Shown: positions 25,040-31,012, counted from the stretch's first letter. The stretch is 64,000 bases of DNA from Patescibacteria group bacterium (GCA_040384705.1 JAZKIU010000001.1:542053-606052); one strand, 5' to 3'. The notes: generated by a model from the letters alone, not told the origin. Program-made: numbers and translations.

Positions 25040-25341
25040 ACTGTAGTTCGAGGAAACTTGCAGACCACTGTTCCTAATGTGCTATAACGACTACAGCCCC
25101 CGGAAGCAACCATGAAGAGGTGCAAATGAAGCCATGGGGAGTGAGCGATACCGACCAGGTCCCTGCTCGAGAGAGCCAAGATCTTATGCGCGCATAGCGC
25201 TCTTAGTGACAGCAGAGGACGTTGCGGCCGGTGATCAAGCGCAGCGTTGGTCACCAGTAGGATGGCACACCGCGAAATCCTGTCGGGAATATACCGCTCG
25301 CTACACTTGAAAGGTCCGTGATTGTCACGGACCTATTTTTA
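25040..25341 (+). ncRNA. Candidate structured non-coding RNA of unknown family ending in a strong intrinsic terminator
   Basis: About 300 nt GC-rich region without a credible ORF. Multiple hairpins (ATGCGCGCAT, GGTGATCAAGC..GTTGGTCACC) and terminator GGTCCGTGA-ttg-TCACGGACC + TATTTTTA at 25312-25341. Confidence 0.3.
25312..25341 (+). terminator. Intrinsic terminator
   Basis: 9-bp perfect stem followed by TATTTTTA. Confidence 0.75.
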
Positions 25342-25552: not shown

Positions 25553-25777
25553 CTACCATTTGCTATCGTATTCATATCTAACTTCCTTATTGATAAATGA
25601 ACTGAGGCCCTGTCCACACCTTGCGAGCACCTTCATACTCTCGACATTTGATCTTCCAGTTCGCAAATAAGTGTACTTGTAGCACGAATCGTCACTGAAC
25701 TTCACAATGATGTAATCCTCACCGATCTTGTACTGCCGTATGTTTGATTGCCAAGATAAATTCTCGTATTGTTCCAT
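25553..25777 (-). CDS. KTSC-domain protein
   Basis: SNIRQYKIGEDYIIVKFSDDSCYKYTY...VESMKVLARCGQGLSSFINKEVRYEY matches the KTSC consensus. Lies in the AT-rich island. Confidence 0.55.
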   Translation of the reverse strand: MEQYENLSWQSNIRQYKIGEDYIIVKFSDDSCYKYTYLRTGRSNVESMKVLARCGQGLSSFINKEVRYEYDSKW

Positions 25778-25887
25778 ACGCTGTTGTTATTGATGTATGG
25801 GAACCTTATCAAGATGTGATTATGTAAATCTCAATTTTTTATAAAGAATTTATAAAAAATTGCCATCCACTTTTTACTATCCATAGT

Positions 25888-28605
25888 TTGATTGAAATAC
25901 TTATCAACACCTCTTTCAGTAAAGGGTATCATAACTATGATACCCTTTACTTTATGGAGGTCGTCGCTAAGCAATCATTCAAGGCAATTTATTTCCCTGA
26001 CATTAGGGAGCGGGATACGAAGTCCAAATCATTTACACTTGCCTTCCCGGAAAATGAGAAGAAGGTATACGAGACAATAAGGCACTTCTCAAGCCATGAG
26101 ATGAGGAAAGTTCTAGGAGTAAAGACTTTTTCTGATCTTGAAACGTATGCCACTAAGGCCGACTTGCCGGTAAATAAATTCTGTATTAATAAGCTTAAGT
26201 ATCAACTAGCAAGAGGCGTTAGCGCCGGCCAATTCCCTATTGACCCTGCCCATGTCACCTTCCAGGGCGCTAAGGATATGCCTCTGCAAAATTGGTATCC
26301 ATATCTTGAAGGTTACTCGCCGGACTTTGTTAAGCATATTATCGACACTCACGTTCATAAGTCTGCAAAGGTTATTTACGACCCCTTCTCGGGCACTGGA
26401 ACTACACCGATAGTTGCGTCTGCGCTCGGGTTCACGGCTCTGTATTCAGAAGTTAATCCTTTGCTTCAGTTCTTAACTAAAGTTAAGACAAAGGCGCGAA
26501 ATGCTCCGAACAGAAAGAAGCTTTTACGCCAACTTGAGGCAATTCTCCCTGATCTCAGAATAGAAATTCTTAAACATGACGAGGATCAGGAATTGAGGAA
26601 GACTTATGCAGACACCTTCGGAGAGAGTAAGTTCTTCTCTGAGAAGGTCTTTAGCCATGTTCTTAAGACAAGAACATACCTGAGTACTCTCTATTTTGAG
26701 GACATACTTCTATCCGAACTAGTAACAGTAGCGGTACTTTCCAGCCTAGTTGAGAACTCTTTTCTCAAGCGCCAGGGTGATCTTAGATTTAGACGCGGAA
26801 AGGAGCTCGATGACTTGAAGACGATTGACTTCTTTGAGAGCCTGACGACCCGACTGCAGCAAATGCTTAAGGACTTGGAGCAGATTAGCTCTAGCGATGC
26901 GCCTACATTAATAACTGAGGATGCCCGAAGTGTAGGTAAGCTTCCCTTTCTAGGAATAGACGCTGTCATCACGAGTCCACCCTATCTGAACGGAACAAAC
27001 TATTTCCGCAATACTAAGGTCGAACTCTGGTTCCTTGGGTACTTAAAGACGCAAGCAGATCTAACCAACTTCAGGAGATTGGCCGTTACGGCAGGTATTA
27101 ATGATGTATCTCTCAAAGCCGAGAAATCTGTACATAACCGGGAACTAAATACGCTACTTGAGACCTTGGAGAAGAAGGCCTATGACAAGCGGATACCAAA
27201 GATGGTCTATGACTACTTCGCGGATATGGAAACAATTTTTGGCGATTTGAGAGGACAGCTTAATAAGGATGCTGTACTTGCTATCGATCTTGGTGACTCT
27301 ATCTATGGGGGTGTTCATGTAAAAACGCATAACATACTGGTATCTGTATTGGAGAATATTGGCTACGTTTTTGAAAAGGAGATTGTTCTGAGAAAGCGAC
27401 AATCAAATAACGGTCAGGAGTTAAAGCAAGTCCTGCTTATATTTAGAAACCCAGATCGAATCCAGAAAGAAAAGATAAAGCCTGAATGGCAAAAAGACTG
27501 GAAGAATTTCAAGAAGAATATACCCCACCACCAAGGGGAAATGTCTAAGCGAAACTGGGGAGACCCAATCCATTCACTCTGTTCCTATCAAGGGAAGCTC
27601 AAGCCATCAATTGCTAGCCAACTAGTCTCAATATTTGTTCCTGAGAATGGGAAGATGCTCGATATTTTTGGAGGTGTTGGCACAATTCCGCTTGAGGCCT
27701 CGCTGCAAAACAAAAAATCATACTCCTTCGATATAAGCCCTACCGCCATAGCGATATCGAGAGCAAAGCTCAACCTTCCATCGGTAAAGAAGATATGGCA
27801 GATCGTTGCGGATTTGGATTCTTGGATTCAGAGTAAGAAGTTGTCACAGGACGAGATTCTCACGACAGCCAAGTTCGGAATGAATAAGACCATGAAGGAC
27901 TACTTTCATCCAAAGACGCTCGAGGAAATTACACTTGCAAGAAAGTATTTTGCTAAGGAGGGATACGCTACAACCGAGCATGCACTTGTAATGTCTGCTC
28001 TTATGCACATTCTGCATGGGAATCGACCTTATGCACTAAGCCGCCGTTCGCATGGGATAACTCCTTTCGCCCCTACTGGCGAATTTGAGTATAAGAGCCT
28101 GATAGAAAAGCTGACCGAGAAAGTTGATCGTACCTTGACCCATCTTCAGAGGGACACCTTTAGTCCGGGAGAAGTTTGTTTCCAAGATGCTACGAAGACA
28201 TGGCCAGCAGAAGTGCGCGATCTGGATGCGATCATTACCAGCCCTCCCTTCTTTGATAGCACCCGGTTCTATGCAGCAAACTGGATGCGTCTTTGGTTTG
28301 CTGGTTGGGATGCAGCGCACTTCAAGACTCAGCCAGTGAACTTCGTTGATGAGTTACAAAAAAAAGATTTATCCATCTACGACGGTATCTTTATGCAAGC
28401 ACGGGAACGCCTCAAGAAGGATGGGGTATTTGTACTACATCTCGGCAAAAGCCATAAGTGCGACATGGCAGATGCGCTATCAGGAAGAGCTGCTCGATGG
28501 TTCGAGGTATGCGATATCTTTGAGGAGAGTGTAGAAGATGGAGAGTCTCACGGTATCAAGGACCGCGGCTCGGTTACTAAGCACCAATACCTCGTACTAC
28601 GTTAG
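25888..28605 (+). CDS. Tandem double DNA methyltransferase (two SAM-MTase modules, each motif I DPFSGTGTT / DIFGGVGTI followed by SPPY / SPPF; N4-cytosine-type signature)
   Basis: Motif I at about aa 165 and about 585; motif IV ITSPPYLNG at about 355 and ITSPPFFDS at about 782. AT-rich codon usage unlike the flanks. Annotated start is TTG 25888, alternative ATG 25954. Confidence 0.85.
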   Translation: MIEILINTSFSKGYHNYDTLYFMEVVAKQSFKAIYFPDIRERDTKSKSFTLAFPENEKKVYETIRHFSSHEMRKVLGVKTFSDLETYATKADLPVNKFCINKLKYQLARGVSAGQFPIDPAHVTFQGAKDMPLQNWYPYLEGYSPDFVKHIIDTHVHKSAKVIYDPFSGTGTTPIVASALGFTALYSEVNPLLQFLTKVKTKARNAPNRKKLLRQLEAILPDLRIEILKHDEDQELRKTYADTFGESKFFSEKVFSHVLKTRTYLSTLYFEDILLSELVTVAVLSSLVENSFLKRQGDLRFRRGKELDDLKTIDFFESLTTRLQQMLKDLEQISSSDAPTLITEDARSVGKLPFLGIDAVITSPPYLNGTNYFRNTKVELWFLGYLKTQADLTNFRRLAVTAGINDVSLKAEKSVHNRELNTLLETLEKKAYDKRIPKMVYDYFADMETIFGDLRGQLNKDAVLAIDLGDSIYGGVHVKTHNILVSVLENIGYVFEKEIVLRKRQSNNGQELKQVLLIFRNPDRIQKEKIKPEWQKDWKNFKKNIPHHQGEMSKRNWGDPIHSLCSYQGKLKPSIASQLVSIFVPENGKMLDIFGGVGTIPLEASLQNKKSYSFDISPTAIAISRAKLNLPSVKKIWQIVADLDSWIQSKKLSQDEILTTAKFGMNKTMKDYFHPKTLEEITLARKYFAKEGYATTEHALVMSALMHILHGNRPYALSRRSHGITPFAPTGEFEYKSLIEKLTEKVDRTLTHLQRDTFSPGEVCFQDATKTWPAEVRDLDAIITSPPFFDSTRFYAANWMRLWFAGWDAAHFKTQPVNFVDELQKKDLSIYDGIFMQARERLKKDGVFVLHLGKSHKCDMADALSGRAARWFEVCDIFEESVEDGESHGIKDRGSVTKHQYLVLR

Positions 28606-29606
28606 ATATAGGCAAGTATCTTTCTATTTCCGGCTGACAGCTGGGATACGAGGTCGTAGTCTTCGAGAAGCTTCTTGAGCTCGTCGATGCGCTTAGCGAG
28701 ATCAGTACCGCCACGAACGGTGAGGAACCGTGTGACACAGGCATCAACGTCGATGTTTGCGTTTACAATAGGCATCTTACTTGCCATTAAGCCTAGGTCA
28801 GCACCTGTGATTCTAGCAAGCGCTATGAGTTCGTCGTTTGTATAGAAATCGCTCGGCCATCGATCGCTCTTATTACTATTCGCATCAGTTGAGAGCAGTG
28901 CAGCGTTCTCGTCCGTAAGTGGGTAGAGCCAACGGGACGGAAGAATATGATCAACTGCCCAGGATCTTCGATCCGCTAAGTCTAGAGACTTACCAGTCTT
29001 GAAGCACTTCCCTTCAAAACGTTCGAAAAGGGCCTTCAAATCGGGCTGCCTGTTCTCGCCTTGAAGGAGAAGTTCGGCGGTGCGCCGACGTATCGAAGAC
29101 TCATAGAGCTGCTCCTTGGTTCGCTTCGGATTAAGATCGGCATTGATAACGGCCTTACAGGCTCGGCACTCCATCTGTTTCTCCAATGGACCCCAACCAA
29201 CATGTTTACTGAAATCCCTGGCAGGCAGAATTCGGCCACAGGTCCCACACTGTTTCCAGTATGCTTCTCGCGTTTCAGTTGCTGTCCTGAAGAAAGCCAT
29301 CCAGAAACGTTGAGTTGGAAGATTGCCAGCAGCAGTTTGCTCAAGCTTCCAAGTAGTAAAGGGTAGGCCCTTCCCTTCCAAGTCCGTAAGCGGGAGAGAT
29401 GATCCTTTGGCATGCTCAAAACCGCACTTATTGCATACCCATGACTCTAATTCGTATGCTTCTGTTGGCCTAAGAAGCTGAGTGCCAAGGGGCACGGTAT
29501 TAGACGTTTGACAGCGCACACATACGAAATGTGCGAAGGCAGCGTGAATTGATACGCCCGAAACTCTGGCAATATTTGTCTTATTAGTTGTAGTTCGCCT
29601 AGCCAT
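28602..29606 (-). CDS. HNH-family endonuclease with two N-terminal zinc ribbons (candidate restriction endonuclease)
   Basis: CVRC..CNKCGFEH and CGTCGR..CRACK Cys4 ribbons. C-terminal AVDHILPSRW...NAALLSTDANSNK HNH (His-Asn-Asn/Lys) motif. Convergent with and overlapping the MTase by 4 bp. Confidence 0.75.
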   Translation of the reverse strand: MARRTTTNKTNIARVSGVSIHAAFAHFVCVRCQTSNTVPLGTQLLRPTEAYELESWVCNKCGFEHAKGSSLPLTDLEGKGLPFTTWKLEQTAAGNLPTQRFWMAFFRTATETREAYWKQCGTCGRILPARDFSKHVGWGPLEKQMECRACKAVINADLNPKRTKEQLYESSIRRRTAELLLQGENRQPDLKALFERFEGKCFKTGKSLDLADRRSWAVDHILPSRWLYPLTDENAALLSTDANSNKSDRWPSDFYTNDELIALARITGADLGLMASKMPIVNANIDVDACVTRFLTVRGGTDLAKRIDELKKLLEDYDLVSQLSAGNRKILAYI

Positions 29607-29677: not shown

Positions 29678-31012
29678 CTAGTAGGACTTAAGTCTCCGAC
29701 TCTTCTCATGCGTCCGGATCTTCTCAAGCGCCTTCGCCTCAATCTGACGGATACGCTCACGAGTCACCCCAAACTCCTTCCCCACCTCTTCAAGCGTGTG
29801 ATACACACCATCAAGCAGCCCATGGCGCATCTCAAGGATCTTGCGCTCCTTCGGGCTTAGGTCCTCAAGGATGTCACGAACCTGTTCACCGAGAATACGC
29901 TCGGAGGATTCCTGTACGGGTGATGGAATCTTATCGTCAGCGATGAAGTCGCCGAGCGTAGAGTTCTGGTCGTCGTCGGAACCGATAGGGTTCTCGAGCG
30001 AGAGGGTGTCCTGGTTTATCTTCTCTATTTGGTAGATCTTCTCCACCTCGACGCCCATCTCTATCGCTATTTCCTCGGGCTGTGGGTCACGGCCAAGCGC
30101 CTGCGCGAGGCGGCGCGATACCTGCTTGTACTTCGCGATCGTCTCCACCATGTGGACCGGGATGCGGATAGTGCGGGACTGGTCGGCAAGCGCACGGGTG
30201 ATGGCCTGACGGATCCACCAGGTCGCATACGTCGAGAACTTGAAACCCTTATGGAAGTCGAACTTATCCACGGCCTTGAAGAGACCGAGGTTACCCTCCT
30301 GGATGAGGTCGAGAAGCGTGAGGTCCGGCGAGCGGCCTACGTACTTCTTCGCGATAGAGACCACGAGGCGGAGGTTCGAACGCGCAAGGATGTTGCGTGC
30401 CTCGTCCTCGCCGTCCTCGATGCGCTTGGCGAGCTCACGCTCTTCGGACGCGGTGAGGAGCGGGTACTGCCCTATCTCACGGAGGTATATCTGGATGGAG
30501 TCGTAGCTCGATGACTCGCGGCCCTTGATGTTACGGGTCGCAAGGTACTGGTCGGTCGTGTCCTCGAGCATGCCGCCTTCGAGGATATCGATGCCGTGGG
30601 CGGTGAACCGCTCATAGAGCTCGTCGAGGAACATGATGTCGTCCTCGATGTGCGGGAACTCCTTGAGGATCTCGGAGTACGTGATGTATCCGCGCTCCTT
30701 GCCCTTCACGATGAGGCGCTCTGCCTTGTCGCCCTTCTCCGCTGCTGCCTTCGCTTTGACGCCAGTGACGGCCGCGCGGACGACGCCCATAGCGCGGACG
30801 TTCTTCGCCGCCTTCTTCGCAGGGGTTCTCTTGGCAGCCTTCTTGACCACCTTCTTAGGCGTTTTCTTTACTGCCTTCTTCACGGCCTTTTTGGTGGGTT
30901 TCTTTGTGGTTGCCATTTTTTTGGATGCGGACTTGGAGGGCGTCTTCTTCGCGCTCTTCTTCACAGCTTTCGTTGCCGCCTTCTTCTTGGCGGGTTTCTT
31001 AGATGAAGCCAT
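29678..31012 (-). CDS. rpoD: RNA polymerase sigma-70 factor RpoD with histone H1-like Lys/Ala-rich N-terminal tail
   Basis: Regions 1.2-4 conserved ([39 protein letters not shown]; [21 protein letters not shown]). First about 85 aa are KKxAKK repeats. Confidence 0.9.

Follow-up and report, generated by a model that had tools for sequence, protein, structure and literature searches.

A widespread HNH nuclease family with a double-zinc-ribbon N-terminal domain, paired with a fused double DNA methyltransferase

Introduction

Among restriction-modification systems with an HNH nuclease, the Type IIS enzymes Eco31I, BsaI, BsmBI and Alw26I (PF09665) possess a single D-H ... N ... K site, which in Eco31I is said to have been assigned by Jakubauskas and colleagues in 2007 to D311/H312/N334/K337; they are about 500 aa or more in length and are accompanied by two methyltransferase activities, an m5C plus m6A pair, that serve an asymmetric site. 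Here, a cassette with some of these features is described from a 64,000-nucleotide stretch of a Patescibacteria group bacterium (GCA_040384705.1, JAZKIU010000001.1:542053-606052), referred to as the window, with positions counted from its first letter. On the minus strand at 28602..29606 the window encodes, from an ATG start, a nuclease of 334 aa with a double-zinc-ribbon N-terminal domain, a linker, a Cas9-type HNH domain and a C-terminal helical region, and on the plus strand at 25954..28605 a fused double DNA methyltransferase of 883 aa. As judged from the HNH motif and the conserved pairing with the methyltransferase, the nuclease very likely acts as restriction endonuclease in a Type II restriction-modification system, a mobile cassette of two genes.

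The cassette shares with the Eco31I-type systems the single HNH site and, as predicted from its domains, the two methyltransferase activities, but those enzymes are much larger than the nuclease and lack a double-ribbon N-terminal domain, and against PF09665 the nuclease gives no Pfam match at E <= 1. In HpyAV and Hin4II an HNH nuclease is accompanied by a single polypeptide which fuses two methyltransferases and addresses an asymmetric site (PMC2816704). HpyAV is like the cassette in this pairing, but differs in its colicin-E9-like H-H ... N ... H site, in the fusion of a C5-cytosine with an N6-adenine methyltransferase and in its co-directional instead of convergent genes (PMC2816704). On these three grounds HpyAV/Hin4II was rejected as the known family of the nuclease, and PDB sequence and PADLOC searches gave no sequence similarity to it. 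Hpy99I, PacI and KpnI, although HNH restriction enzymes as well, are small homodimers acting on palindromes; more than one four-cysteine zinc site per subunit is present in Hpy99I and PacI (PMC4081073, PMC2699513), and the zinc sites of these enzymes sit within the catalytic repeats, whereas the nuclease has its ribbons in an N-terminal domain of their own. Phage zinc-ribbon HNH endonucleases combine the HNH domain with an extra zinc-ribbon domain holding one or two zinc sites (PMC3592412), a layout similar to that of the nuclease, but they are terminase-associated nickases in which the [CxxC]2 zinc site of the HNH is intact, while the nuclease family is methyltransferase-linked. By analogy, the cassette appears to work like the HNH Type IIS systems (Eco31I/BsaI, HpyAV), but it is a member of neither; it would not represent a new kind of system.

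The nuclease gene and its conserved methyltransferase partner

Homologues with a length of about 334 aa number more than 580 in a protein sequence search. Across 68 aligned homologues with 56-82% identity, the eight cysteines of the two ribbons, C29/C32 (CVRC), C58/C61 (CNKC), C120/C123 (CGTC) and C147/C150 (CRAC), are all invariant, as are D219 and H220 of the AVDHILP motif, the subsequent N234, and N243 and K246 of the ANSNK motif, which together make up the HNH core. The open reading frame, the CxxC ribbons and the HNH core noticed in the original prediction are present as described, and their invariance indicates that the motifs are real and under selection rather than chance. The original prediction had named a conserved His general base as a point to be checked in homologues; this is H220, invariant and preceded by Asp D219 throughout the 68 sequences. 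Judged by these residues, the HNH domain of the nuclease is catalytically intact.

In the NCBI annotation of the source genome, a metagenome-assembled genome (MAG) of Patescibacteria, the nuclease starts at M103 (P0002, 232 aa), which drops the N-terminal tail and ribbon 1 (29301-29606). Since conservation among the homologues begins at M1, with M1, R3, R4, T10 and R14 invariant, the sequence supports the full 334-aa reading over the M103 start. For the methyltransferase, a mechanical list of open reading frames begins at TTG 25888 (905 aa); its homologues begin with M-x-KQ[FY][FY]K and the called gene of the closest relative is likewise 883 aa long, so that, on this comparison, ATG 25954 is taken as the true start.

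The methyltransferase matches PADLOC MTase_II (1.9e-75) and Pfam N6_N4_Mtase. A motif scan delimits two complete domains on the plus strand, the first (26386..26985) reaching from motif I FSGTG (26386-26400) to motif IV SPPY (26974-26985), the second (27667..28251) from motif I FGGVG (27667-27681) to motif IV SPPF (28240-28251). The two halves are paralogous (24% identity, E 3e-12), fused in the window and separate in some relatives. The convergent methyltransferase and nuclease genes overlap by 4 bp, with the stop codons TAG at 28603-28605 (plus strand, methyltransferase) and TAA at 28602-28604 (minus strand, nuclease).

A scan of one genome per GTDB species recovered relatives of the nuclease in 112 genomes, 80 of which were kept at an identity of at least 51%. 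They comprise Patescibacteria, Saccharibacteria, Bacteroidota, Ignavibacteria, Nitrospirota, Verrucomicrobiota, Spirochaetes, Elusimicrobia, Planctomycetes, Thermodesulfobacteriota, Gammaproteobacteria and one 'archaeon' bin, and all 80 are MAGs or assemblies of uncultured organisms, which may explain why the nuclease family has never been characterised. Of the 80 genomes, 77 have the fused methyltransferase immediately downstream in convergent orientation, while in the remaining three the contig ends within 89 bp; the pairing therefore holds at each of the 77 testable loci, the two genes usually overlapping or near-abutting. Metagenome contigs display the same arrangement in unrelated neighbourhoods. 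This linkage supports the original prediction as far as it saw in the protein an HNH enzyme of the restriction type.

Co-inheritance is indicated by the pairwise identities, which correlate between nuclease and methyltransferase (r = 0.80). In restriction-modification systems the methyltransferase is usually more conserved than the nuclease; this pattern is reversed in the cassette family, where mean pairwise identity amounts to 67% for the nuclease versus 56% for the methyltransferase and is higher for the nuclease in 91% of 1540 pairs (loci L012-L091 and the window). The cassette of the window is an island of low GC content (0.35-0.52 versus 0.58-0.60 in the surroundings). In loci L001-L004 (9703-11025 in L001), L096 (6540-7874) and L094 (7299-7886), a large serine recombinase or a fragment of a phage-type integrase is encoded directly beside the cassette, which fits with carriage on mobile islands; in the window, no serine recombinase or integrase gene adjoins the cassette. 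The low-GC island, the identity of at least 51% across more than ten phyla and the adjoining recombinase and integrase genes together argue that the nuclease-methyltransferase pair moves between phyla as a unit.

Two loci deviate from the common picture. In a Kiritimatiellae MAG (L005/L026, 7118-8272), a gene for 384 aa with a weak NOV_C match is situated between nuclease and methyltransferase, the sole such locus of the family. In L036 the cassette is found on a 5.3-kb contig binned as 'uncultured archaeon', which may reflect inter-domain transfer or a binning error.

An HNH core of the Cas9 type

The HNH beta-beta-alpha-metal core (C201 ... D219-H220 ... N234 ... N243-x-x-K246 ... P251) is encoded at 28854..29006 on the minus strand. 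An AlphaFold2 model places its strands at residues 216-220 and 235-239 and its helix at 240-246, with a predicted local distance difference test score (pLDDT) of about 84-95. A Foldseek search with this model retrieved Cas9 HNH domains (E 4e-5, probability 1.0), all 50 best PDB matches being Cas9, and a PDB sequence search likewise led only to Cas9 HNH domains (E 2e-3). The C-terminal half of the nuclease also matches NCBIfam cas_Csn1 (5e-6, 25 bits against a cut-off of 100), and the nuclease matches the PADLOC Cas9 model (3.7e-7). Residues 189-253 align with SpCas9 809-873; as both stretches are equally long, the alignment is presumably ungapped, in which case D219, H220, N234 and N243 would correspond to D839, H840, N854 and N863 of SpCas9.

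Sequence and model comparisons thus agree on an HNH domain that is Cas9-like (His-Me finger group 1) and neither KpnI- nor Hpy99I-like. The likeness to KpnI and Hpy99I that had been suggested from the window sequence was not borne out, since Hpy99I, PacI and KpnI appear neither among the PDB sequence matches (E <= 10) nor among the 50 best Foldseek matches. With the members of group 1 (Pfam HNH/HNH_4/HNH_5; Cas9, McrA, MnlI) the nuclease has the D-H ... N ... N-x-x-K core in common, and with Cas9 also the lack of a four-cysteine structural zinc site. Unlike Cas9, however, it is a stand-alone, methyltransferase-coupled protein of 334 aa that lacks RuvC, guide-RNA apparatus and CRISPR array; there is no RuvC domain and no room for one, and the TnpB model scores 10 bits. 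An RNA-guided, TnpB-like reading, prompted by the Cas9 HNH and sub-threshold TnpB ribbon matches, was rejected in view of the obligate methyltransferase linkage, the absent RuvC domain, scores far below the cut-offs and an Rfam scan of window positions 24-31 kb, in which no family reached its threshold.

The original prediction was right that the core lacks the usual structural-zinc cysteines, as of the four positions only C201 is kept, the others being T204, S239 and A242. This does not make the protein a designed minimal cutter. The window lineage reads KCFKT...DH...LSTDANSNK as opposed to KCFxC...DH...LCxxCNxxK in the full-length relative P0121 and in a second subfamily (P0145 and others), and among the 100 superfamily representatives that reach 250 aa, 74 retain CxxC...DH...CxxC. 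Because close relatives keep these cysteines, the loss of three of the four HNH zinc ligands is, from the alignments, a derived, lineage-specific state and not a special design. P0121, with its zinc cysteines, exceeds the cut-off of Pfam HNH PF01844 (24.1 versus 21.4 bits); the nuclease itself has no match to an HNH family in Pfam at E <= 1 and reaches the cut-off of no Pfam family. Many His-Me fingers lack a zinc knuckle, and zinc-less forms are well known (PMC5714182). The nuclease family displays an HNH domain just after loss of the structural zinc, with close relatives still in possession of the site, and with an end state as in Cas9.

Zinc ribbons and the wider superfamily

Zinc ribbon 1 (C29xxC32 ... 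C58xxC61; 29424..29522, minus strand) and zinc ribbon 2 (C120xxC123 ... C147xxC150; 29157..29249, minus strand) have been conserved to a different degree around their invariant cysteines. Residues 21-70 around ribbon 1 are the least conserved segment of the nuclease (54%), and relatives of the P0145 type carry CxxxxC in place of CxxC in the first knuckle; residues 115-158 with ribbon 2 are the most conserved (83%). A comparison of the two ribbons for internal duplication showed no similarity. Ribbon 2 weakly matches the TnpB/Cas12f zinc-ribbon model PF07282 below threshold (24.4 bits, cut-off 26.3), which is read as generic ribbon similarity.

Between the N-terminal domain and the HNH domain lie a linker and helix (residues 159-184; 29055..29132, minus strand), in which N159, P160, R162, T163, Q166, E169, R174 and R175 are invariant among the 68 sequences in spite of low model confidence. 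For the whole nuclease, AlphaFold2 gives a pLDDT of 84.6 and a predicted template modelling score (pTM) of 0.48, with residues 160-175 below a pLDDT of 50, and for residues 1-160 modelled separately a pLDDT of 91.4 and a pTM of 0.84. The models indicate a protein of two lobes joined by a low-confidence linker. The C-terminal region (residues 257-334; 28605..28838, minus strand) is predicted to be helical (pLDDT 71-93) and is conserved at 65%.

An exhaustive profile search collected 450 cluster representatives of the nuclease superfamily, few of them full-length. Of the 100 representatives that measure 250 aa or more, 82 align solely over profile positions ~115-144 to 280, that is ribbon 2, the linker helix and the HNH domain, and 56 of these 82 carry unrelated N-termini of at least 150 aa. 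Every core-sharing relative examined is methyltransferase-linked: the distant relatives P0145, P0121, P0190 and P0209 are each convergent with two N6/N4 methyltransferases, separate or fused, and a relative on the Psychrobacter plasmid pA39BP3, for which a literature search found nothing, is convergent with two N6/N4 methyltransferases and accompanied by an HTH controller-like gene. From these comparisons, ribbon 2 and HNH form a module common to a larger methyltransferase-linked superfamily with varied N-termini, which could be mined for new specificities.

As the most conserved segment, which travels with the HNH domain beside unrelated N-termini, ribbon 2 would belong to the conserved machinery of cleavage and not to the elements that set specificity. 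The N-terminal tail, ribbon 1 and the adjacent helices, the only family-specific part, are a plausible specificity determinant. The DNA recognition by the ribbons that had been proposed from the motif layout is on this basis only half plausible, as a candidate role.

Fold comparisons of the nuclease model with BFVD returned generic phage HNH endonucleases. In addition, giant-virus proteins named 'Stc1 domain', 'Zn-finger protein' and 'Restriction endonuclease HNH' of Clandestinovirus and open reading frames of Pithovirus and Fadolivirus align over about 300 columns with the whole model at low TM-scores; according to the models, they may have a similar layout of multiple zinc sites plus HNH.

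A putative operator of the methyltransferase gene

Directly upstream of the methyltransferase gene, at 25918..25951, a perfect dyad of 16+16 nt, AGTAAAGGGTATCATA AC TATGATACCCTTTACT, ends 2 nt before the ATG. The same dyad, with the consensus GAAGTAAsTATCA-N5-TGATAsTTACTTC and a length of about 31 bp, recurs at about 45 of 61 loci from many phyla, its centre lying 15-26 nt before the ATG, with paired changes of the half-sites from TATCA/TGATA to TACCA/TGGTA, while upstream of the nuclease genes the dyad is absent and nothing is conserved. The dyad is likely an operator, as far as can be said from this pattern. A consensus scan found a promoter-like site, TCAACA-17-TATCAT (25904..25932, plus strand), whose -10 hexamer coincides with the left inner half-site of the dyad; promoter-like sites are no more numerous in the region than in shuffled sequence. 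An RNA hairpin as the role of the dyad is disfavoured, as on the sense strand C·A mismatches occur at least as often as T·G and the promoter-like -10 of the window is inside the left arm. In Bacteroidota, where a host promoter motif is found upstream of the dyad, an RNA hairpin may be formed.

The candidate ligand of the dyad is the methyltransferase N-terminus, in which residues ~45-90 (26086..26223, plus strand) constitute a weak, putative ribbon-helix-helix segment. A profile of 56 methyltransferase N-termini of about 100 aa retrieved PDB 1x93 (HP0222; E 0.006) as well as 2k9i (ORF56; E 0.69), both of which we take to be ribbon-helix-helix proteins and which are named hypothetical or uncharacterised in the search output. 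Pfam RHH_7 matches 17 of the 56 N-termini (best 1.6e-4) and RHH_5 13 of the 56, all below the cut-offs; the methyltransferase N-terminus of the window on its own gives no match. In L094 both the dyad and a ribbon-helix-helix-type N-terminus are present, in L092 Pfam HTH_26 occurs at the N-terminus in its place and the dyad is absent, and in L010 a separate HTH gene accompanies the cassette. This distribution suggests that the methyltransferase N-terminus (25954-26343) is a swappable regulatory module; the joint presence of the dyad and the ribbon-helix-helix-type N-terminus in L094 and the missing dyad in L092 also suggest autorepression of the methyltransferase via the dyad. Self-regulating methyltransferases such as M.SsoII, M.EcoRII and M.MspI use an N-terminal DNA-binding domain and a palindrome in their own promoter region. 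As compared to their helix-turn-helix, the module of the cassette would be ribbon-helix-helix-like. Dyad and putative fusion provide a testable regulatory design for cassettes that have no controller gene.

A second perfect palindrome, CAATTTTTTATAAA GAA TTTATAAAAAATTG with arms of 14 nt, is located at 25832-25862, about 90 nt upstream of the methyltransferase start.

Proposed function and alternative explanations

In the proposed mechanism of the restriction-modification cassette, each methyltransferase domain would modify one strand of an asymmetric target and in this way protect the host, and the nuclease would bind the same site when unmodified, mainly via the basic tail, ribbon 1 and the adjacent helices. 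Cleavage would be the task of a module made up of ribbon 2, the HNH domain and the conserved linker helix, in which D219 and N243 would hold a single metal ion and H220 would serve as general base. With just one active site, the nuclease would have to dimerise or to nick sequentially in order to cut both strands. Expression of the methyltransferase would probably be self-limited by binding of its weak ribbon-helix-helix N-terminus to the dyad over its own promoter and 5' end. The system is thus probably IIS- or IIA-like.

Several observations weigh against this reading. No likeness to a characterised restriction enzyme was found, so that the assigned function draws on gene context and catalytic motif. 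The duplicated methyltransferase is the sole ground for the asymmetric, Type IIS-like reading, and analysis of k-mer avoidance in 589 kb of host DNA flanking the 80 cassettes, with maximal-order Markov expectations, found only generic palindromes depleted (GATC, CTAG, GGCC, GGWCC and six-base palindromes) and no asymmetric word. The recognition role of the N-terminal region is one that we infer only; the N-terminal domain found no solved structural analogue in Foldseek (best E 0.85), and for the zinc sites of known HNH restriction enzymes a structural role is reported (PMC4081073). The ribbon-helix-helix assignment, finally, is weak, as it stays below every curated cut-off.

The original prediction that the nuclease may define a new restriction enzyme family is reasonable, as no restriction-enzyme model of Pfam, NCBIfam or PADLOC matches it (REBASE being outside the comparison) and the source names among the homologues listed are 'hypothetical protein' or zinc-ribbon labels (rubredoxin, Com). 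Most likely, the sequence comparisons point to an uncharacterised, widespread restriction enzyme family, unnamed in the databases compared, with an unmatched double-ribbon domain. The family is compact and highly conserved, and restriction enzymes of new fold or specificity are still useful tools. A bolder view, tentative and on the whole doubtful, is that the double-ribbon domain of about 160 residues represents a new sequence-reading fold joined to a single-site, zinc-less Cas9-like HNH, making the nuclease a compact 334-aa Type IIS-like enzyme of new specificity from a large modular superfamily, where different N-terminal domains for recognition would be exchanged on a single ribbon-plus-HNH cleavage cassette. 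If true, this superfamily would naturally lend itself to the search for new specificities or for scaffolds of programmable nickases.

Instead of a double-strand cutter, the nuclease could be a strand-specific nicking or repair endonuclease accompanied by a methyltransferase, either with a Vsr-like logic or as a natural nickase. There is one HNH active site per chain, evidence for a dimer was not obtained, and many phage zinc-ribbon HNH enzymes are nickases (PMC3592412). N6/N4 methylation, however, brings no need for mismatch repair comparable to that arising from deamination of m5C. Moreover, HNH Type IIS enzymes with a single site that cut both strands exist, Eco31I being an example. Improbable as a separate explanation, the nickase is really a sub-variant of the restriction endonuclease, as the evidence here does not separate nicking from cutting.

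That the nuclease is a homing or mobility endonuclease, whose cuts at unoccupied target sites would spread the methyltransferase cassette, is highly improbable. HNH domains are common in homing endonucleases and the cassette is mobile, occurring in varied genomic contexts, but the insertion contexts differ and display no common target, searches of GenBank phage records and IMG/VR found no phage copies of the nuclease family, and the mobility genes, where present, are recombinases or integrases; the sequence before the nuclease gene shows no conservation. To have a double methyltransferase as partner is the hallmark of restriction-modification and not of homing.

Less probable still is a modification-dependent (Type IV, McrA-like) or stand-alone HNH nuclease with a methyltransferase neighbour by chance. 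Two distant superfamily representatives carry the JGI label '5-methylcytosine-specific restriction endonuclease McrA', and the HNH domain of the nuclease falls in the same His-Me group as that of McrA (PMC5714182). These names look automatic, though, and are attached to distant relatives and not to the window family, whereas the linkage is obligate and convergent, at 77 of 77 loci across phyla, with co-divergence of the two proteins at r = 0.80; attack on modified DNA would, in addition, be suicidal beside an active methyltransferase, unless a different modification is targeted.

The least probable alternative, a controller-like zinc-ribbon DNA-binding regulator of the methyltransferase gene with a vestigial nuclease, would account for the lack of a separate controller gene in a cassette which yet has a conserved dyad upstream of the methyltransferase, and for nuclease columns such as position 46 that track the dyad variant, but the catalytic residues are all invariant in the 68 homologues, the dyad accompanies methyltransferase N-termini of the ribbon-helix-helix type (window family, L094), L092 keeps the double-ribbon nuclease beside its HTH_26 N-terminus with the dyad absent, and the associations by mutual information between half-site variant (TATCA or TACCA) and protein columns are confounded by phylogeny.

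Surroundings of the cassette

A reading frame of 74 aa at 25553-25777 on the minus strand, divergent from the methyltransferase, is situated inside the low-GC island. It matches no family at a useful E-value and, with no equivalent called at this position in the annotated loci examined, does not seem to belong to the conserved cassette. A terminator-like hairpin at the island's left edge (25312-25334; 10-bp stem followed by a T-run) accounts for weak, sub-threshold Rfam matches to small RNAs. On the other side of the cassette, the adjacent gene at 29678-31012 on the minus strand encodes a sigma-70 (RpoD-like) protein with a long Lys/Ala-rich, histone-H1-like N-terminal tail of AKK/KKA repeats.

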